This document shows positions 8,052 through 16,167 of a DNA stretch of 33,426 nucleotides, in pieces (positions within the stretch are counted from its first letter, which is position 1; the number at the start of each line of letters is the position of its first letter). The position numbers and the translations under genes are program-made. Origin of the DNA: a virus (lineage: Duplodnaviria > Heunggongvirae > Uroviricota > Caudoviricetes); the IMG/VR virus record IMGVR_UViG_2579778982_000017; one strand, given 5' to 3'. The notes under the pieces are model-generated. The model had not been told where the DNA came from. It saw nothing but the letters and a program-made list of their open reading frames with translations, and ran no database searches.

Positions 8052-8675
8052 ATGACAAAACATCTTAATGTGGTTTCTTTACCACTTTCTGTGTTGATTG
8101 GTTATGAAAAGAACGCTCGCACACACTCCGTGGAGCAGGTAGATCAGATTGTTGCCAGCATACAGGAGTACGGATGGACTAATCCGATCCTGATAGACGA
8201 GAACAACGTTGTAATTGCTGGTCATGGTCGAATTGCTGCGGCCACTCAGTTGGGGATGGATGAGGTTCCCTGCATTGTTCTGGAAGGGCTAACGGAGAAT
8301 CAGAAGAAGGCATATCGTCTGGCCGACAACCGTATTCCGCTGAATGCTGGTTGGGATGAAGAGTTGTTAAGCGCGGAGCTTGCAGATCTTGCGGCCGATG
8401 ATTTTGCTCTGGACTCAATTGGTTTTACTCAGCGCGAACTGGATAACTTATTGAGTGCGGCGGTCTACGATGACACAGAGGGTATGGATATCCCATTTGA
8501 GAAGGATGAGGCCAAATCAGGCGTAAAAGTTCAGTACCTGTCATTTGGAGGTCATAAAATCCCGGCAACGGATGAGGAAGCGGATCGTTTTGACTGCGCG
8601 GTGTCTCGTTATGTTGATGATAATGGCAGCTATATCGGATTTGTATCCGCATTGCTGGCTGGGGAGGTGTGCTGA
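8052..8675 (+). CDS. ParB-like N-terminal (ParB/Srx fold) domain protein with acidic C-terminal region
   Basis: PILIDENNVVIAGHGRIAAATQLGMDEVPCIVL and QKKAYRLADN are ParB N-domain-like; stop overlaps next start (TGATG). Confidence 0.75.
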   Translation: MTKHLNVVSLPLSVLIGYEKNARTHSVEQVDQIVASIQEYGWTNPILIDENNVVIAGHGRIAAATQLGMDEVPCIVLEGLTENQKKAYRLADNRIPLNAGWDEELLSAELADLAADDFALDSIGFTQRELDNLLSAAVYDDTEGMDIPFEKDEAKSGVKVQYLSFGGHKIPATDEEADRFDCAVSRYVDDNGSYIGFVSALLAGEVC

Positions 8676-10048
8676 TGCTTCACCTGAATTACGACATAAC
8701 GCACCTACGCGGCGCGGAATATAACCCGCGTTTTATCGGTGAGGATGATCTTGCGAGGCTGGCGGAAAGCGTCAGGGAGCTGGGGCTTGTGAAGCCATTG
8801 ATAGTGCGCGGCGATTTGCTGGTGGCGGGACACCAAAGGACGAAGGCGCTACGTAAGTTGGGAATAACGCGTGCTGCGGTGTATGTGTTGCCCTGTGAAA
8901 CGACGGTATACGATGAAGTACGGTTTAACCAACTGCATAACGGAACGGATTTTGATAGCGGAGATGAGCGTTGCAGGGTGTCCGGTCTGGAAGATAAGCA
9001 TGGTTTTGTTCAGGTATCGGCAAGCCAGATCTCAGGCAATATGCGCGCGAAAATGGCATATGTTCGAAAGAACATAGCGGAACTGGTTATCAAGTATGGT
9101 CCGTGGGGGGGTTGTGTTGCTACTCAGTCTGGTGAGGTTATTCACTGTGCTCAGTATGCATTAGCAGCGAAAATGACGCGCACACCGCTAACGGTGTTTG
9201 TGATCCCTGATGTTGAGAAGGAAAAATACCAAAGTTATCTGAATAAAACTTATGGTGTATTTGAGTATTCTCATCTGGAGAAAACAACATATATCCAGAC
9301 GTATGCGCAGCTTATGCGGTTGCGTAATGGTGGCAGCCTGAAATCAAATCTGTATGAGTCGTTGATCCTCCCGATCATTGCCAAGACGCCAAGAGGAATT
9401 GATTTTGGTTCGGGGCAGGGAGACTACGCGCGAATGCTCAGGGCAAAGGGATATAACCTGCATGATCTCGAGCTTTTTCGCCGTAAGGGCGCTGGAAACA
9501 CTCTGGATAGGACCGCAACAAACCGGATGATTGATACGCTGGTGGACGACTTAAAAACGCGAGGGCGTTACGACTACGTGATTTGCGATAGCGTTTTGAA
9601 CTCGGTCGATAGTGTCGAGGCTGAATGGTCCGTTCTGACGGTTCTGAAAGGCCTGTGTAAAGCTGGTGGGTCAATATTCTTTTCTGGTCGTAGCCGTGGA
9701 GAGCTGGAAACAGTCCTGAAGCAAACACAAGCGGCGAGTTCCAAAAGCCGGCTTTATTTTATTGATCATAACGGTTTTACCGCGTTGTACCGGAAGGGGC
9801 ACTGGTTTTACCAGAAGTTTCACTCTGATGATGAAGTGAAGCAGTTGTGCCGTGTACATGGTTTCAGGATTAAGCGGTCAATATTCAACTGTAAGAGCTG
9901 GTATTTGCACGTCATTAACGATGATTCCCTTAGTTGGGCGAGTCTGGAGAAAGCTGTTCGTTTTGAGTTTGAGTTGCCGTTGCCTGGTGGTTCAACAATC
10001 GGACGATCTGATGATGTGCTGGCGGCTTTCCGGCCGTTGATTAAGTAG
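8675..10048 (+). CDS. Fusion protein: ParB-like N-terminal domain + Rossmann-type SAM-dependent methyltransferase domain
   Basis: ATG 8675 with GGGGAGG 7 nt upstream (track uses GTG 8669). N-terminus PLIVRGDLLVAGHQRTKALRKLGI; C-terminal half has IDFGSGQGDY (SAM glycine loop), HDLELF and DYVICDSVLNSV; no DPPY/NPPY/DPPW motif seen. Confidence 0.7.
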   Translation: MLHLNYDITHLRGAEYNPRFIGEDDLARLAESVRELGLVKPLIVRGDLLVAGHQRTKALRKLGITRAAVYVLPCETTVYDEVRFNQLHNGTDFDSGDERCRVSGLEDKHGFVQVSASQISGNMRAKMAYVRKNIAELVIKYGPWGGCVATQSGEVIHCAQYALAAKMTRTPLTVFVIPDVEKEKYQSYLNKTYGVFEYSHLEKTTYIQTYAQLMRLRNGGSLKSNLYESLILPIIAKTPRGIDFGSGQGDYARMLRAKGYNLHDLELFRRKGAGNTLDRTATNRMIDTLVDDLKTRGRYDYVICDSVLNSVDSVEAEWSVLTVLKGLCKAGGSIFFSGRSRGELETVLKQTQAASSKSRLYFIDHNGFTALYRKGHWFYQKFHSDDEVKQLCRVHGFRIKRSIFNCKSWYLHVINDDSLSWASLEKAVRFEFELPLPGGSTIGRSDDVLAAFRPLIK

Positions 10049-10064: not shown

Positions 10065-10784
10065 GTGGCTGACAGAATTGAGATAAAGATGGATTTTTCT
10101 TCTCAGGATATTCAACGACAACTCCAGCGCCTTGAAGAACGCGAATTGCCGTTCGCAATGGCGCTTGCGGCAACCAGAACGGCAAAGGCTTCTCAGGCTG
10201 CGATTAAGAATGAAATTAATCGGGTATTTGACAGGCCCACGCCGTGGATTCAGAACTCTACTTACGTTTTGGCCGCAAAGAAGAGCGATCCTACAGCCAT
10301 TGTGTATGCTCGTGAATGGGGAGGAACGCCAGCCCCTGTAACGTTGACCCCGCAAATCGAAGGTGGCCAACGACAGTACAAACGCTCAGAAGGGGCGCTA
10401 AGGGCTGGTGGATATTTGCCTAACGGCTGGCAGCTTGCTCCTGGTCCCGGCGCAAAGCTGGACAAATATGGGAATATTTCGCGGGGGCAATTACAGCAGG
10501 TCTTATCTGGCCTAAGAGTTCAGCGAGATGCGCATCAAAATCGCCGTCAGGGCAAGCCTACGGAGTTTTTTGTTGTTCGACCTGGTACAAGTAACCCGCT
10601 TCAACCAGGCGTCTGGCAGCGCGTTGGGCGGCGTCCTACGTTGATCCTTACGTTTATCCAGCAACCTAACTATTCGCAGCGTCTTGATTGGCATGGCGTG
10701 GCGCTGCGTGCTGGTGAGGATGCGTTTGCTGATGAAGTCACAAAGGCTATTGATGACATTCTTTCTAAGACCTTCTCTCGTTAA
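10065..10784 (+). CDS. Hypothetical protein (239 aa), last gene of the ParB/methyltransferase operon
   Basis: GTG 10065 with GGAGG at 10054-10058, 17 nt after upstream stop; Gln/Arg/Pro-rich; no motif recognised. Confidence 0.55.
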   Translation: MADRIEIKMDFSSQDIQRQLQRLEERELPFAMALAATRTAKASQAAIKNEINRVFDRPTPWIQNSTYVLAAKKSDPTAIVYAREWGGTPAPVTLTPQIEGGQRQYKRSEGALRAGGYLPNGWQLAPGPGAKLDKYGNISRGQLQQVLSGLRVQRDAHQNRRQGKPTEFFVVRPGTSNPLQPGVWQRVGRRPTLILTFIQQPNYSQRLDWHGVALRAGEDAFADEVTKAIDDILSKTFSR

Positions 10785-10975
10785 TCATCGTGTGGTTGAT
10801 GGTGTTGTTATGCAGAGTGTATTCACTGTGTTCTGTAGCGTCGCTCGCTGGCTGTCTGTGGGGGAGCACGAGCATCGTTTCATCGTCCGGCAGAATTGGG
10901 TCCTTCTGGCCAAAAGCGTTGGATGCGGGTCATTCGAACCCCGATGTTCGGCTAGCTAAACGTGAAAAAAGTTAG

Positions 10976-11341
10976 GTTAAAAGTTGCGGTAAAAGAAATT
11001 TACTCATCTCATTGAAAAATATCGGGAAAACGTGATTTTTTGCTGTATTTGTGCTGGTAAAAAGAAAGTAGAAAATTTTCTTTTAGATCATCAAGATACG
11101 CGCAGATCTTTAACCAATGTGATGTTGTTCTGATAAAAATAGTTATAAATCATGCAAATACATCCAATCTTTTAACCAAAACACCATCGCAAGATCCTTT
11201 TTACTTATAAAAACTTAATAAAATCAGATAATTATGCTGGTTTGTGTGATTTTTTATGAGTAAAAAGATCGTCATTTTTCTCTTTTAGTATCAATAAGTT
11301 AAACAGTTTTCTTTAACCTGTTGTGTTATGGCGGTTAAAAA
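10976..11341. promoter_or_regulatory. Long AT-rich non-coding region with clustered GATC sites and short repeats (promoter or packaging-site candidate)
   Basis: ~365 bp without a credible ORF; GATC at 11086, 11105, 11193 and 11267; CTTTAACC-type repeats at ~11108, ~11168 and 11312; lies upstream of the packaging genes. Confidence 0.35.
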
Positions 11342-11932
11342 ATGGCTCTAAAAATCGAATATTTACCAGTCGGTAAGCTGCTCAGATACGCCAAAAATTC
11401 ACGGACTCATTCAGATGAGCAGGTTGAACAGTTGGTGAACAGTATCCGTGAGTTCGGTTTCACTAATCCTGTGCTGATCGATGAAAAGAATGAACTGATT
11501 GCGGGGCATGGTCGGCTTGCAGCAGCCGAAATTCTGGAAATGGATAAAGTTCCGGCGATTCGGTTGAGTAACCTTTCTGAAAAACAGAAGAAGGCGTACA
11601 GGATTGCAGATAACAAGCTGGCCTTAAATGCTGGCTGGGATATGCAGCTTCTGGCCGAAGAAGTCAAAGAGTTAATGGATGATGATTTTGATATTGATCT
11701 GCTTGGGTTTAATGATGCAGAGCTTGACGAAATGTTAAGCGATGAACAGCCGCAGGAAGAAGACGATAATTCTTCCCCTGTTGTTCAAATTAAGTACCTG
11801 GCTATTGATAAAGAACGTATTCCCGCGACGGATATGGAAATTGCATTGTTGCTGGATGTTTATCGTCAGTACCACGACGCGCATGAAACGCATGAGGGAT
11901 TTGTTCAGTATCTTGCTAATGGTTGCAAGTAA
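11342..11932 (+). CDS. ParB-like N-terminal domain protein, paralogue of 8052-8675
   Basis: About half the first ~130 residues identical by eye to 8052-8675 (RTHS-EQV, TNP-LIDE, IAGHGR, QKKAYR-ADN, LNAGWD); stop overlaps terminase start (TAATG). Confidence 0.75.
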   Translation: MALKIEYLPVGKLLRYAKNSRTHSDEQVEQLVNSIREFGFTNPVLIDEKNELIAGHGRLAAAEILEMDKVPAIRLSNLSEKQKKAYRIADNKLALNAGWDMQLLAEEVKELMDDDFDIDLLGFNDAELDEMLSDEQPQEEDDNSSPVVQIKYLAIDKERIPATDMEIALLLDVYRQYHDAHETHEGFVQYLANGCK

Positions 11933-12483
11933 TGGTCATCGTCAGTAAGTCAGAGTTTGCCCGCCGGAAAGGTATTTCTCCGGCAATGGTTACGAAGCTC
12001 TGTCGTTCCGGTCGCATTCCAGTGCTGAAAAGCGGCAAGCTGGATTTTGATAAAGCCAGTGCGGCTTATGAAGCGAGCCGACAGGTTGGCCGTGAGGTAT
12101 CTGCTGAAAATGGAAAAAGAGGGCATGGGATATCTTCGGAACAACCAGAGTTACCCGCTGATGATGCCGGATTAGCTGGTGGTACTTCCGGTGTTGCGGT
12201 GCAATTCAACAAGGCTAAGACCGCAGAAAAAATTTATCAGGCAAAGCTGAAACGCCTTGAATTTGAAGAAAAGGAAGGCTCTCTCATCGCTAAAGATGCG
12301 GTCAGGGATGATGCATTTCTGGCAGCTAATGAATTGCGTAGCCGCTTATTTAGTATTGCTCCAAGAGCAGCTCCCCGTTGTGAAGGCAAAACAGCCAGGG
12401 AGATCGAACGCATTATTGAAGACGAGATTAATTTTGCGCTTCAGGCGCTCCAGGAATCCCGATTTATTAAGCAGGAAGAATAA
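11932..12483 (+). CDS. Terminase small subunit (Nu1-like)
   Basis: Directly upstream of the large subunit; N-terminus SKSEFARRKGISPAMVTKLCRSGRIPV resembles the lambda Nu1 N-terminal DNA-binding pattern. ATG 11932 preferred over the track's TTG 11923. Confidence 0.65.
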   Translation: MVIVSKSEFARRKGISPAMVTKLCRSGRIPVLKSGKLDFDKASAAYEASRQVGREVSAENGKRGHGISSEQPELPADDAGLAGGTSGVAVQFNKAKTAEKIYQAKLKRLEFEEKEGSLIAKDAVRDDAFLAANELRSRLFSIAPRAAPRCEGKTAREIERIIEDEINFALQALQESRFIKQEE

Positions 12484-12488
12484 ACCTC

Positions 12489-14345
12489 ATGGGCGAAACA
12501 GTATGGAGCACCGCTTTTTTCCGTGCGCTTCGCCCTAAATCACGGCTAACTGTTTCCGAATGGGCTGATAAGTATCGTCATGTAGCGCCGGGAACGTCTC
12601 CAGAGCCAGGGCCGTGGTGTACAAGCCGAGTGCCATATTTGCGTGAACCAATGGATGTTATTGGTGACGCTGATACAGAAACAGTAGTGATGCAATGTAG
12701 CTCGCAAATTGGTAAATCCGAATTACAGCTAAATGTTATGGGTTACTTTGCAGATCAGGAGCCATCTCCTCAGTTGATGATTTATCCAACGGTAGAGGCG
12801 GCTGAGGCTTTTTCAAAAGAGCGTATTGATCCGACGTTCAAATATTCCCCTGGTTTGAAACACAAGCTGCATGAAGGGAAAGAGGGGCGCGGTGCAGCCA
12901 AAAAGTCCAGCACGACTATACGTATGAAGCATTACGCTGGTGGATATATAGCACTTGTTGGTGCTAATTCCCCAGCAGGTCTTGCATCCAGGCCAATTCG
13001 AATACTGTTAGCTGATGAGATTGATCGTTACGGTGTGACGCAGGAGGGCGACCCACTAAAACTAGGTATTCAGCGTACTACCAACTTTCATAATCGTAAG
13101 AAAGTTTTTGTTTCTACTCCTGTTTTGGAGGAAACGAGCAAAATCCACAAGTGGTTTAAGCTCTCCGATCAGCGTTACTACCATGTTCCTTGCCCATGTT
13201 GTGGCACCATGCAGGTGATGAAATGGTCGCAAGTCAGATGGGATAAGAGCGATTCAGGTGAGGCGTTACCGGAAACGGCCAGATATGAGTGCTGTGAGTG
13301 CGGCGGGATTATGCGCGGATCTGGTAAACCAGACGTTGATTGGTTGGCGAAGGGGGTTTGGATAGCTGAACATACTGGAGTTAAAGGTATTGTTGGTTTT
13401 CATATTAACAGTCTTTACTCCCCGTGGGTTGCATTGTCAGAGCTGGTTGAAGAATTTACGGAAGCAACCAGAAACCGCGATAAAAATGGATTAATGGAGT
13501 TTATTAACCTTAAGCTGGGTGAGCCATGGAAAGAGGATGCTAAAGACGATATAGATCCTGAATACTTGTTGCAACGCAGAATAAGGTTTGAAGAGTTTTT
13601 ACCAGATGATGTTTTATTGTTAAGTGCTGGTGTTGACGTACAGGACACGTATTTAGTTTGTGAATTGGTCGGTTGGGGAAAAGGTAAGGAGTCATGGGGG
13701 ATAGAATATAAAATATTCCCAGGTGATCCCGCACAAGATGTTGTCTGGAAACAACTTGATGAATACTTACTCCGTAGCTGGTCATTCCGTGACGGTCGAA
13801 AATTACAGATTTCTTCTGTTTGTATTGACTCTGGTGGGCATTTTACGACAGAGGTATATCGCTTTACTAAGCCGAGAGAATCAAGGCGAATATACTCTAT
13901 CAGGGGGCGTGGTGGGGTAGGTTTACCATTTATAGGAAAGCCAAGTAATAATAACCGTGTGGGTGCTATGTTGTTTAATTTAGGGGTTGATGATGGTAAA
14001 GGGACCATCATGGCAAGAATTAAACTACATGATCCTGGTCCTGGTTATATGCATTTCCCATTAGATTCTGACAGAGGATATGATACCGAATACTTTAAAG
14101 GATTATTATCAGAGAAAAAAATATTTGAATATAAAAATGGGCAGACAAAAGAAAAGTGGGTGAAAGTCTACGAGCGTAACGAGCCTCTTGATTGCCGTAA
14201 CTATGCAACTGCCGCGATGGAAATTCTGAACCCTAATTTTAACTGGCTTGCCGAACAGGAAATGCGAGGTAATGTGTATGTGCAGAACTCGTCAGGTATA
14301 CGTAGAAGACGCCGTAGAGTTATAAGTAAAGGCGTAACCATATAG
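12489..14345 (+). CDS. Terminase large subunit (lambda gpA family)
   Basis: 618 aa; N-terminal TVSEWADKYR and C-terminal NEPLDCRNYATAA resemble lambda gpA as I recall it; position before gpW-like and portal genes. Confidence 0.9.
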   Translation: MGETVWSTAFFRALRPKSRLTVSEWADKYRHVAPGTSPEPGPWCTSRVPYLREPMDVIGDADTETVVMQCSSQIGKSELQLNVMGYFADQEPSPQLMIYPTVEAAEAFSKERIDPTFKYSPGLKHKLHEGKEGRGAAKKSSTTIRMKHYAGGYIALVGANSPAGLASRPIRILLADEIDRYGVTQEGDPLKLGIQRTTNFHNRKKVFVSTPVLEETSKIHKWFKLSDQRYYHVPCPCCGTMQVMKWSQVRWDKSDSGEALPETARYECCECGGIMRGSGKPDVDWLAKGVWIAEHTGVKGIVGFHINSLYSPWVALSELVEEFTEATRNRDKNGLMEFINLKLGEPWKEDAKDDIDPEYLLQRRIRFEEFLPDDVLLLSAGVDVQDTYLVCELVGWGKGKESWGIEYKIFPGDPAQDVVWKQLDEYLLRSWSFRDGRKLQISSVCIDSGGHFTTEVYRFTKPRESRRIYSIRGRGGVGLPFIGKPSNNNRVGAMLFNLGVDDGKGTIMARIKLHDPGPGYMHFPLDSDRGYDTEYFKGLLSEKKIFEYKNGQTKEKWVKVYERNEPLDCRNYATAAMEILNPNFNWLAEQEMRGNVYVQNSSGIRRRRRRVISKGVTI

Positions 14346-14356
14346 AGGAAATATAA

Positions 14357-14596
14357 ATGAACAATGAAGCATTTTCTCTGACTGAAGCCAGAGAGATGTT
14401 ATCTGTCTGGCGGGAAGCATATCGCGCTATTGCTATTGGCGGTCAGTCATATAAATTTGGTACGCGGCAGTTAACTCGTGCGGATTTATCAGAAGTCAGA
14501 AAAGAGATGGATTACTGGCGTAATGAAGTAGAAAGATTATCAGCAGGTATACGCCGAGGCCCACGAATTAAACGAGTGGTGATAAGAGATTTATGA
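14357..14596 (+). CDS. Head-tail joining protein (lambda gpW-like)
   Basis: 79 aa between terminase and portal; C-terminal DLSEVRKEMDYWRNEVERL...RRGPR parallels lambda W. Confidence 0.65.
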   Translation: MNNEAFSLTEAREMLSVWREAYRAIAIGGQSYKFGTRQLTRADLSEVRKEMDYWRNEVERLSAGIRRGPRIKRVVIRDL

Positions 14597-16167
14597 ATAT
14601 TCTTGATCGAGTTATTGCGCCGTTTTCACCTCAGAGGGCATTAAATCGAGCTTTGGCAAGAAAACGGTTAGAAGCACTTGAAGGTATTAATAACCTTGGA
14701 TATTCACGTCATGGTGCAAGCACTCATAAAAAATCATTAAGGGGTTGGTTTAGTAAAGCTGGTTCTCCTGATGATGATATTGTTAAAAATATAGATAAAT
14801 TGCGTGAGCGTTCTCGTGATCTCTTCATGGGAAACCCGCTATCGGTTGGCGCAATAAAAACTATCAGGACAAACGTTGTTGGTTCCGGTTTAAAACTAAA
14901 TGCGAACATTGATGCCGATTTCTTGGGGATGACGCAGGAAGAAGCGCGAGCATGGGAAAAGCATGTTGAGCGTGAGTTTAGATTATGGGCTGATTCTCCA
15001 AATTGTGATGCATCAAGAATGTGTACTTTTGGACAATTGCAATCATTGGTTCAAATATCTGCTTTAACATCTGGCGATATATTTGCTGCGCTACCAGTTA
15101 TTAAGCGTAAGGGTGTTATATATGATTTGTGCGTCTATTTAATTGAAGGTGATCGTGTTTGCAATCCAGAGGATCGTTTTATACCAAATCTTTACGGTGG
15201 CGTAGAGGTTGGTGAATTTAGCGAGCCTGTGGCGTACTGGGTTGCAAAACATCACCCAGCCGGGACTTCTGGTTTTGTAACCCGCAAGTGGGAACGTATT
15301 CCCGCATATGGGAGTAAAACAGGAAGAAGAAATATTCTGCATGTCATGCAGGATTTTGAAAGGCCTGGGCAACGCCGTGGCGTTCCTGTCCTTGCTCCTG
15401 TAATTGAAGCATTGAAGCAGTTAGGACGATACACCGATGCTGAATTGGTTGCTGCGGTTGTGTCAGGGATGTTTACTGTCTTTATTAAAACAGACGCTCC
15501 TGATGGACCAGTCGGTGAATCGGGTATCCCTCAGTACGAGCAGATCGATAACCATGATGATAACACCCAAGAAATGGGGAATGGCTCCATAGTAAGTTTG
15601 GGTGAAGGTGAGTCGATAGATACAGCAAATCCCGGGCGACCAAATACGGCATTTGATGGTTTTGTTGTCGCCATATGCCGTCAAATTGGGGCTGCTTTAG
15701 AACTCCCTTACGAACTCTTGGTAAAGCATTTTACAGCAAGTTATAGCGCAAGCAGGGCCGCATTACTTGAAGCCTGGAAAATGTTCCGTATGCGACGTGA
15801 CTGGATGGTTCAGTCATTTTGCCAACCGATCTATGAGGAATGGTTGGCCGAAGCCGTTGCTAAAGGTCGTGTTATTGCCCCTGGTTTTTTTTATGGGCCT
15901 GAATATCGCGCTGCATGGAGTGGCGCTCAATGGTATGGCCCATCACAAGGCCAATTAGATCCCCTTAAAGAAGTCAAAGCTGCAAAACTGCGTGTTGAGG
16001 AAACATTCTCTACCCGTGAAAAGGAAGCGGCTGAAATGTCAGGTCTTAACTGGGAAGAAACCGCACAAATTTGTGGCAGAGAAGAGAATGCTCGCCGTGA
16101 ATTGGGGCTGATTACGCCTCCTGTTTCTGAGGTAAATGAACAAAATATGGAGACAGATGATGCCTAA
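14593..16167 (+). CDS. Portal protein (lambda gpB family)
   Basis: 524 aa; position and segments such as MTQEEARAWEKHVEREFRLWADSPNCD are consistent with lambda-type portals. Confidence 0.85.
   Translation: MNILDRVIAPFSPQRALNRALARKRLEALEGINNLGYSRHGASTHKKSLRGWFSKAGSPDDDIVKNIDKLRERSRDLFMGNPLSVGAIKTIRTNVVGSGLKLNANIDADFLGMTQEEARAWEKHVEREFRLWADSPNCDASRMCTFGQLQSLVQISALTSGDIFAALPVIKRKGVIYDLCVYLIEGDRVCNPEDRFIPNLYGGVEVGEFSEPVAYWVAKHHPAGTSGFVTRKWERIPAYGSKTGRRNILHVMQDFERPGQRRGVPVLAPVIEALKQLGRYTDAELVAAVVSGMFTVFIKTDAPDGPVGESGIPQYEQIDNHDDNTQEMGNGSIVSLGEGESIDTANPGRPNTAFDGFVVAICRQIGAALELPYELLVKHFTASYSASRAALLEAWKMFRMRRDWMVQSFCQPIYEEWLAEAVAKGRVIAPGFFYGPEYRAAWSGAQWYGPSQGQLDPLKEVKAAKLRVEETFSTREKEAAEMSGLNWEETAQICGREENARRELGLITPPVSEVNEQNMETDDA

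Follow-up and report, generated by a model that had tools for sequence, protein, structure and literature searches.

The subject of this analysis is the intergenic region that precedes the packaging genes in a 33,426-nt stretch of tailed-virus DNA (IMG/VR record IMGVR_UViG_2579778982_000017; hereafter, the window), whose source element is a circular ~48.5-kb myovirus phage-plasmid with repA, parA, lysis genes, a lambda-like head module and a contractile tail. The region appears to be a cos site. It very probably contains cosN at 10928-10939, where nicking by a lambda-type GpA terminase would leave the 12-nt 5′ overhang GGTCATTCGAAC. To the right of cosN, an AT-rich array of short repeats is probably the cosB-like half of cos, i.e., the site at which the small terminase subunit (TerS) and IHF would assemble. 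There are strong indications that the left end of the mature chromosome is the side carrying the genes for a ParB-like protein, TerS, and the large terminase subunit (TerL), as in lambda, and that it starts 37 bp before the AT-rich region at 10976-11341. The same indications make this AT-rich region the first element on the mature chromosome, followed by the ParB-like, TerS, and TerL genes. The literature searched describes no packaging signal for this phage-plasmid family.

The position of cosN comes from genome ends as they stand in deposited GenBank records rather than in raw reads. Plaque-forming phages of the family are known on Yersinia pestis, namely vB_YpM_39, vB_YpM_41 and vB_YpM_44 (isolated on Y. 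pestis EV76), and they are near-identical to the window. The records of vB_YpM_41 and vB_YpM_39 start at window position 10928 (GGTCATTCGAAC followed by CCCG…) and end at 10927, and the record of vB_YpM_44 starts at window position 10940 and has …GGATGCG GGTCATTCGAAC as its last letters, such that the starts of the two kinds of record lie exactly one 12-mer apart. Similar ends are seen in the closest virion-characterized relatives by TerL (63-65% identity), the Vibrio phages X29, phi 2, XM1, PVP-XSN, R19R and Rostov 7. The linear XM1 record has GGTGCTCGCGAC at its start and GGTGCTCGCGAC plus an extra A at its end, the first letters of the PVP-XSN record are the homologous 12-mer, and the X29 and R19R records end 11 nt and 10 nt into it, respectively. 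In total, seven virion-derived records have ends on the homologous 12-mer, with mutual offsets no greater than its length; to judge by the records and papers, they were deposited by several groups. End repair fills in a 5′ overhang, which leaves the 12-mer at both ends of a record, whereas it trims off a 3′ one. The record ends, the 12-mer at both ends of XM1, and the GpA type of the terminase are together the reason for placing a 5′-GGTCATTCGAAC overhang at 10928-10939. Defined genome ends have been published for X29 (X29 paper). The features at and around the predicted nicking site are as follows.

10925-10943, no strand: cosN core GCGGGTCATTCGAACCCCG (GGGT-N8-ACCC), partly two-fold symmetric; nearly all enterobacterial relatives have it unchanged
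10928-10939, plus strand: 12-nt cohesive end 5′-GGTCATTCGAAC, with predicted nicks at 10927/10928 (top strand) and 10939/10940 (bottom strand)
10898-10907 (block 10896-10911), plus strand: box TGGGTCCTTC, to the left of the top-strand nick at a distance of 21-30 bp; possible cosQ-like element for termination
10948-10957, plus strand: box TCGnCTAGCT, just right of cosN; no lineage examined lacks it, the Vibrio phages and a Methyloprofundus metagenome-assembled genome (MAG; L050) among them

The cosN core is widely distributed. The exact 20-mer form, GCGGGTCATTCGAACCCCGA, is found in most enterobacterial relatives, and GGGT-N8-ACCCC lies upstream of the packaging genes in the Vibrio phages, the Methyloprofundus MAG, a Planctomycetota MAG, and several virome contigs. 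In some relatives with this core that lack the ParB gene, the cosN-like core stands directly before TerS. A pattern scan of IMG/VR found no contigs ending at the predicted nick, its matches being mostly chance or bacterial assemblies. The boxes on either side of cosN are also conserved. The TGGGTCCTTC box is kept in E. coli, Salmonella, Vibrio, and Planctomycetota (MAG, L051) relatives, and the DNA immediately to its left, at 10790-10895, has diverged among relatives, with insertions and deletions (indels). This box may be a cosQ analogue that acts at the termination of packaging. In L114 and L118, two contigs without the ParB gene, the box and the cosN-like core stand in the reverse order. 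The TCGnCTAGCT box is probably part of an extended terminase contact.

The AT-rich region to the right of cosN had first been described in a sequence-only reading as non-coding DNA with four GATC sites and short repeats, possibly serving as the cos or terminase-binding region, as an IHF-type bent region, or as a methylation-sensitive promoter. The description is accurate: the 366 bp at 10976-11341 have a G+C content of 28.4%, against 43-55% in neighboring 300-bp windows, and GATC occurs at 11086, 11105, 11193 and 11267. The non-coding stretch is larger than first described. The true intergenic region is taken as 10785-11341 (557 bp) because two open reading frames within or overlapping it, 10684-10959 and 10790-10975, show low identity and indels among relatives and are not annotated in RefSeq; both were rejected as coding sequences. 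The cos proposal holds in essence, since cosB-like repeats lie inside the AT-rich region; its placement does not, since the records end at 10928-10939, 37 bp to the left of that region.

The repeats are real and strongly concentrated. The motif is GGT(T/A)AAAAG, the reverse complement of the CTTTAACC-like sequence noticed earlier, and there are eight or nine copies in the AT-rich region. Its shorter form GGTWAAAR (reverse complement YTTTWACC) occurs seven times in the 382 bp at 10960-11341 and nine times in the other 33 kb; shuffled versions of the region have a mean of 0.09, and none of 3,000 shuffles reaches seven. Forward copies start at 10975, 10988, 11056 and 11259, reverse copies at 11108, 11169, 11197 and 11310, and a ninth copy at 11332 overlaps the ribosome-binding region. 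The copies and the larger structures that they form are listed here.

10975-10983, plus strand: m1, GGTTAAAAG; invariant in 24 of 24 relatives, its position occupied by GGTTAACAA in the Yersinia-type lineage and by (A/G)GTTAACAC in the Vibrio phages
10988-10996, plus strand: m2, GGTAAAAGA, 13 bp after m1
11056-11064, plus strand: m3, GGTAAAAAG
11108-11116, minus strand: m4, inside the dispensable 90-bp segment
11169-11177, minus strand: m5, GGTTAAAAG
11197-11205, minus strand: m6, a palindrome arm
11259-11267, plus strand: m7, a palindrome arm
11310-11318, minus strand: m8, GGTTAAAGA
11066-11155, no strand: dispensable 90-bp segment with GATC#1, GATC#2 and m4, deleted in the viable phage vB_YpM_44
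11193-11270, no strand: imperfect palindrome GATCCTTTTTAC…GTAAAAAGATC, in which m6 and m7, flanked by GATC#3 and GATC#4, surround a predicted IHF site

The AT-rich region of the E. coli lineage is only ~60% identical to that of Salmonella and of the other lineages sampled (L014 and L027/L030/L034), compared to 79-93% for the flanking proteins, and within this low-identity region the motif cores stand out as short islands that are invariant across 24 distinct relatives. The proximal pair, m1 and m2, lies 41 and 54 bp from the center of cosN, and a pair is found ~40-55 bp from cosN in every lineage. The outer arms of the palindrome are kept in Salmonella through compensating changes. The sites appear to be partly redundant, because vB_YpM_44 is viable without 11066-11155, including one motif copy.

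The suggestion of an IHF-type bent region is borne out by sequence features at two positions.

11222-11234, plus strand: IHF consensus AATCAGATAATTA, a perfect WATCARNNNNTTR match preceded by an A-rich tract, at the center of the palindrome
11289-11301, plus strand: second IHF consensus TATCAATAAGTTA, also a perfect match

At the first position, the specified consensus positions are invariant in the 24 relatives, and the unspecified NNNN occurs in six forms, which supports the assignment of 11222-11234 as a putative IHF site. The second may be another; it is perfect or has one mismatch in L014, L047 and L048 and is weaker in Salmonella. In addition, A/T tracts across the region are phased at 10.75 bp, and none of 1,000 shuffles reaches the observed power, although the control, a mononucleotide shuffle, flatters the score.

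What binds the repeats? Three genes follow the intergenic region.

11342-11932, plus strand: ParB/Srx N-terminal-domain protein, 196 aa (Pfam ParB_N, 3.8e-8; PHROG 620); its stop codon overlaps the TerS ATG
11932-12483, plus strand: TerS, 183 aa from the ATG (PHROG 57 at 4.5e-42), with a predicted N-terminal MerR-like winged helix-turn-helix (HTH)
12489-14345, plus strand: TerL of the lambda GpA type (Pfam GpA_ATPase, 5.5e-75; GpA_nuclease, 1.1e-84)

The likelier binder is TerS rather than the ParB-like protein, for three reasons: TerS has a predicted N-terminus resembling a winged HTH, the ParB-like protein shows no domain besides ParB_N/Srx, and relatives that lack the ParB gene keep the repeats. 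In the AlphaFold model of TerS, the N-terminus is arranged as strand-helix-helix-wing with a pLDDT (predicted local distance difference test) score of ~87. A Foldseek search of PDB gave small MerR-like winged HTH folds as the best matches, namely RacA, BldC, the gpNu1 DNA-binding domain (1j9i), Xis, and Rpp. The match to 1j9i has a TMt of 0.60, a probability of 0.90, and E = 0.7, and other MerR-like winged HTH domains rank similarly; the E-values are weak because the N-terminal domain is short. A PDB sequence search with TerS gave nothing significant.

The assignment to TerS is further supported by the way in which the motif changes between lineages. A sister lineage, consisting of Yersinia proxima-type elements and related contigs, has the same cosN and a TerS that is 51-57% identical, and it carries GGTTAACAA at the same positions and in the same orientations (+ + + − − − −). 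All seven or eight exact GTTAACA matches in the intergenic stretch of each 5.5-kb locus fit this orientation pattern. The motif of the Vibrio phages, also that of the Methyloprofundus MAG, is GGTTAACAC. The motif variant follows the predicted recognition helix of TerS:

E. coli/Salmonella lineage (A): TerS helix GISPAMVTK, motif GGTWAAAAG
Yersinia-type lineage (B): TerS helix GLSRAAITK, motif GGTTAACAA
Vibrio phages and Methyloprofundus MAG: TerS helix GRSHVWV, motif GGTTAACAC

The pairing of GRSHVWV with GGTTAACAC is common to two very different hosts. Copy number varies from five (Vibrio) to ten (L075). In the latter contig (1350-1908), the array has grown to 558 bp with ten GGTTAACAA copies through internal duplication, the opposite of the deletion in vB_YpM_44. 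A profile search of genome contigs with the TerS alignment returned only two loci. Among distant relatives, the ParB-less contig L114 (~2420-2470) has several GGTAACA copies within the TerS coding region, in the linker part, and just upstream of TerS. A separate observation concerns TerL: in L049 (1366-3885), the GpA-type large terminase is split by a LAGLIDADG_3 domain, probably an intein or a homing endonuclease.

Several observations weigh against reading the region as a cos site with a TerS-bound array. The genome ends are taken from deposited records, and those of the Yersinia phages are labeled circular. The Foldseek matches between TerS and gpNu1 are weak (E 0.3-3), and Pfam Phage_Nu1 gives no match. 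Divergence between lineages is also seen in the ParB-like protein, and co-variation thus does not strictly single out TerS as the binder. The palindrome formed by m6, the IHF site, and m7 is confined to the E. coli, Salmonella and L014 lineages. Lastly, the array covers ~370 bp with a spacing of 50-70 bp, three times the length of lambda cosB and far beyond the ~100-bp Vibrio array; part of such a long array may serve another purpose.

It is rather unlikely that the ParB/Srx-like protein, or some other regulator of the phage, is what binds the array, which would then be an operator or loading site through which the ParB-TerS-TerL operon is controlled or cos cleavage is aided; even then, this would still be the packaging region. 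The ParB-like gene is the first after the array, it is translationally coupled to TerS, and its position is conserved from E. coli to Vibrio. Moreover, a sigma-70-like TTGCTT/TTGCCT-17-TATACT, found by eye, lies inside the Vibrio array (L036 88-125, L037 100-140; X29, XM1; TTGCTT-17-TATACT in its first form), overlapping the fourth repeat, so the repeats could regulate transcription there; it has no counterpart in the window. However, domain searches of the ParB-like protein found the ParB_N/Srx domain and no recognizable HTH, the repeats that ParB-less relatives retain beside TerS are of the GGTAACA type, and in the Methyloprofundus MAG, where the TerS HTH and the motif are of the Vibrio type, the ParB match covers the N-terminal domain only. 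A consensus scan of 10600-11600 found no sigma-70-like promoter, against 2.0 ± 1.3 in shuffles, with activator-dependent promoters outside the scan; no intrinsic terminator was found in the same interval, and there was no Rfam match at E ≤ 1 in 10600-11500. By eye, the only promoter candidate near the ParB start is a weak TAAACA-18-TGTTAT without room for a leader, and it was rejected. A switch sensitive to Dam methylation, in the form of a promoter or of a regulated cleavage site resembling P1 pac, is highly unlikely. Cleavage of P1 pac is controlled by Dam methylation of clustered GATC, and here four GATC lie within 185 bp, against 0.73-0.93 expected locally (P = 0.003-0.015), and the window as a whole is poor in GATC (81 observed, 124 expected from base composition). 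Furthermore, GATC#3 and GATC#4, placed symmetrically about the predicted IHF site and directly adjoining motif copies, occur in 22/24 and 19/24 relatives. Yet the chance that some 185-bp interval of 33 kb holds at least four of 81 GATC is P = 0.47, meaning that the excess is a local one and is not significant across the 33-kb search. GATC#1 and GATC#2 are present in just 5/24 and 6/24 relatives, are absent from the Salmonella lineage, and are deleted in vB_YpM_44; GATC#1 is GATA in vB_YpM_41; and sister lineages with the same architecture have zero or one GATC across the region. The motif cores beside the sites are invariant (24/24) where GATC varies. The cluster is largely a by-product of the repeats, because three of the four GATC form the 3′ tail of a motif copy (…AAAGATC). 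Judged by this comparison, GATC is not the selected feature; the sites are largely incidental and not required. The terminase is also of the cos type (GpA) rather than PacA/PacB. The proposal of a methylation-sensitive promoter is thus not upheld.

A shade less plausible again is the idea that the AT-rich stretch has no sequence-specific role beyond spacing, being curved, H-NS-bound filler or the remnant of duplications and deletions beside cos. Its length does vary, from ~100 bp in the Vibrio phages to the 558 bp of L075, with the 90-bp deletion of vB_YpM_44 among the variants, and identity between lineages is low outside the conserved islands. Nonetheless, filler would not be expected to have motif cores and IHF positions that are invariant in 24 relatives, or a motif that is replaced in concert at the same positions elsewhere. 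Finally, it is extremely improbable that plasmid or lytic replication starts in this region, from an origin like oriC or P1 oriR. AT-rich DNA, GATC, and short repeats in a plasmid-maintained replicon would fit an origin, but repA is ~24 kb away in the circular plasmid and is followed directly by an AT-rich region of its own that contains a perfect DnaA box, TTATCCACA. The region studied here and its surroundings lack a DnaA box, and the same array lies next to the ends of Vibrio phages, which carry integrases according to the X29 paper. The AT-rich DNA downstream of repA, with its DnaA box, is at 14050-14700 in NZ_CP009073.1 (L006) and is likely the plasmid origin.

If the region is a cos site with a TerS-bound array, a mechanism can be proposed. 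The N-terminal winged HTH of TerS would bind the eight or nine GGT(T/A)AAAAG copies. The invariant proximal pair, m1 and m2, would anchor the terminase such that TerL is positioned to nick cosN 12 bp apart. The three proximal copies are forward and the distal ones mostly reverse, and IHF at one or two sites, together with the phased A/T tracts, would fold the distal copies back onto the complex. The resulting nucleoprotein complex would be a larger, longer, and partly redundant counterpart of the lambda R3-I1-R2 hairpin. Packaging would run rightward and stop at the next cos, where the TGGGTCCTTC box may play the role of cosQ. Late transcription probably reads through cos from upstream genes, by analogy with lambda. 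A more elaborate scheme, which we consider quite unlikely, is a three-party platform in which the ParB/Srx-like protein acts with TerS and IHF at cos, e.g., as an accessory nuclease or clamp, with Dam methylation of the GATC pair that abuts the motifs tuning assembly in the plasmid-prophage lineage. There is a parallel in the HNH proteins that assist HK97-type terminases. If true, such a platform would add a new accessory component and a new layer of control to cos packaging.

What are the implications of a cos site at this position? A cos site with cosB is, as such, well-known biology. Locating cosN and the likely TerS sites fixes the natural start of the genome. It also predicts which DNA, such as plasmids or islands bearing cos, the phage could mobilize. 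In addition, the three TerS helix variants, three matched site variants, and arrays of five to ten sites form a natural series for the evolution of terminase specificity, and the cosN core GGGT-N8-ACCCC is common to phages of Enterobacteria, Vibrio, methanotrophs, and Planctomycetota.

The phage-plasmid family is a common one, present in 72 of 5,426 complete E. coli genomes. The DNA at 10700-11500 is 95-100% identical to that of the 72 plasmids (~48.5 kb) in these genomes, for example the ATCC 25922 plasmid NZ_CP009073.1. Matches to 10880-11345 are also found in plasmids of E. fergusonii, E. albertii and Klebsiella aerogenes, and three Salmonella plasmids match it with ~70% identity. None of the ten defined types of phage-plasmid (PMC12977533) includes the family. 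One Salmonella genome has two copies of the element (L035/L083, IMGVR_UViG_2880350357_000007, and L026) that are 98.7% identical across the packaging region. The first of these, with "TerS 48%", was rejected as a natural swap test: the identity of the locus DNA to L026 indicates a frameshifted copy of TerS.

To the left, the intergenic region is bounded by the gene for a 239-aa protein (PHROG 1924, "minor tail"), and to its right the order is ParB_N/Srx-domain gene, TerS, TerL. The sequence-only reading had suggested that an inserted ParB-like gene could have displaced cos from the small-terminase gene. If so, the insertion is not recent, since ParB-TerS-TerL is a conserved module whose order is common to the Vibrio phages X29 and XM1. 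The window has three paralogous ParB_N/Srx-domain genes within 4 kb (8052-8675, 8669-10048 and 11342-11932), the middle one of which is fused to a Methyltransf_23 domain. On the far side of TerL, the window has a DUF6148 gene, where Yersinia proxima-type relatives (L045 4964-5561, L046 3268-3736) have a Transposase_31/Rpn-family gene.

How does this region compare to known packaging sites? Like P1 pac, it has clustered GATC in the packaging recognition region of a phage-plasmid. P1 packages by the headful mechanism with PacA/PacB, and the GATC-containing hexamers are themselves the repeated element. Here, in contrast, the terminase is of the cos type, the repeated element is GGTWAAAAG, and GATC is neither conserved nor required. 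In pac sites of the SPP1/SF6 type, multiple TerS boxes lie on intrinsically bent DNA (mentioned in PMC4669245). The region studied here similarly has several putative TerS-type sites over a few hundred base pairs of curved DNA beside the predicted cut, an arrangement suggestive of DNA wrapped around an oligomer of TerS. Those systems are headful (pac), with unrelated TerS and TerL families, whereas here there would be a precise staggered nick at cosN.

The Vibrio relatives X29, phi 2, vB_VpaM_XM1, PVP-XSN and Rostov 7 belong to the proposed "Weiviridae" (PMC11432961; PMC5690320). They share the order cos, ParB-like, TerS, TerL, and records that end at the homologous 12-mer. They also share a homologous cosN (GCGGGT-N6-GACCCCG), a TGGGTCC box, and a TCGTCTAGCT box; in Rostov 7, the homologous stretch reads TTTGGGTCCTCC…GCG GGTGCTCTCGAC CCCGCCTTTCGTCTAGCT. 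Their GGTTAAC-type repeats begin ~40 bp from the end. Unlike the array in the window, the Vibrio array is compact: ~100 bp hold five GGTTAACAC copies, most of them direct repeats. Its AT content is not especially high, no IHF consensus was noted in it, and it contains the sigma-70-like promoter described above. No cos analysis was found in two papers on these phages, and the XM1 paper is silent on termini.

The closest functional parallel is lambda cos, which is organized as cosQ-cosN-cosB with R sites (R3-I1-R2-R1) and IHF, and which has relatives in phages 21, N15 and gifsy-1 (PMC4669245). As in lambda, the cohesive ends would be 12-nt 5′ ends made by a GpA-type TerL at a nicking site that is partly two-fold symmetric; the side of cosN towards the terminase genes has repeated sites and a predicted IHF site, and the other side, where lambda has cosQ, has a conserved box. 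The predicted N-terminal winged HTH of TerS would be another likeness, and both the site sequence and the TerS helix differ between lineages, as they do between lambda and 21. There are also clear differences: eight or nine sites over ~370 bp, where lambda has three in 120 bp; a ParB/Srx-like gene that separates cos from TerS; a TerS without a Pfam Phage_Nu1 match; a myovirus virion; and a plasmid prophage. The cohesive end has 3/12 matches, by direct comparison, to that of lambda, GGGCGGCGACCT. The definition of "lambda-like phages" given by Feiss et al. (PMC4669245) rests on the cohesive end. Hence, because its cohesive end shares just 3 of 12 bases with that of lambda, the region falls outside that definition, even though it probably works like lambda cos.

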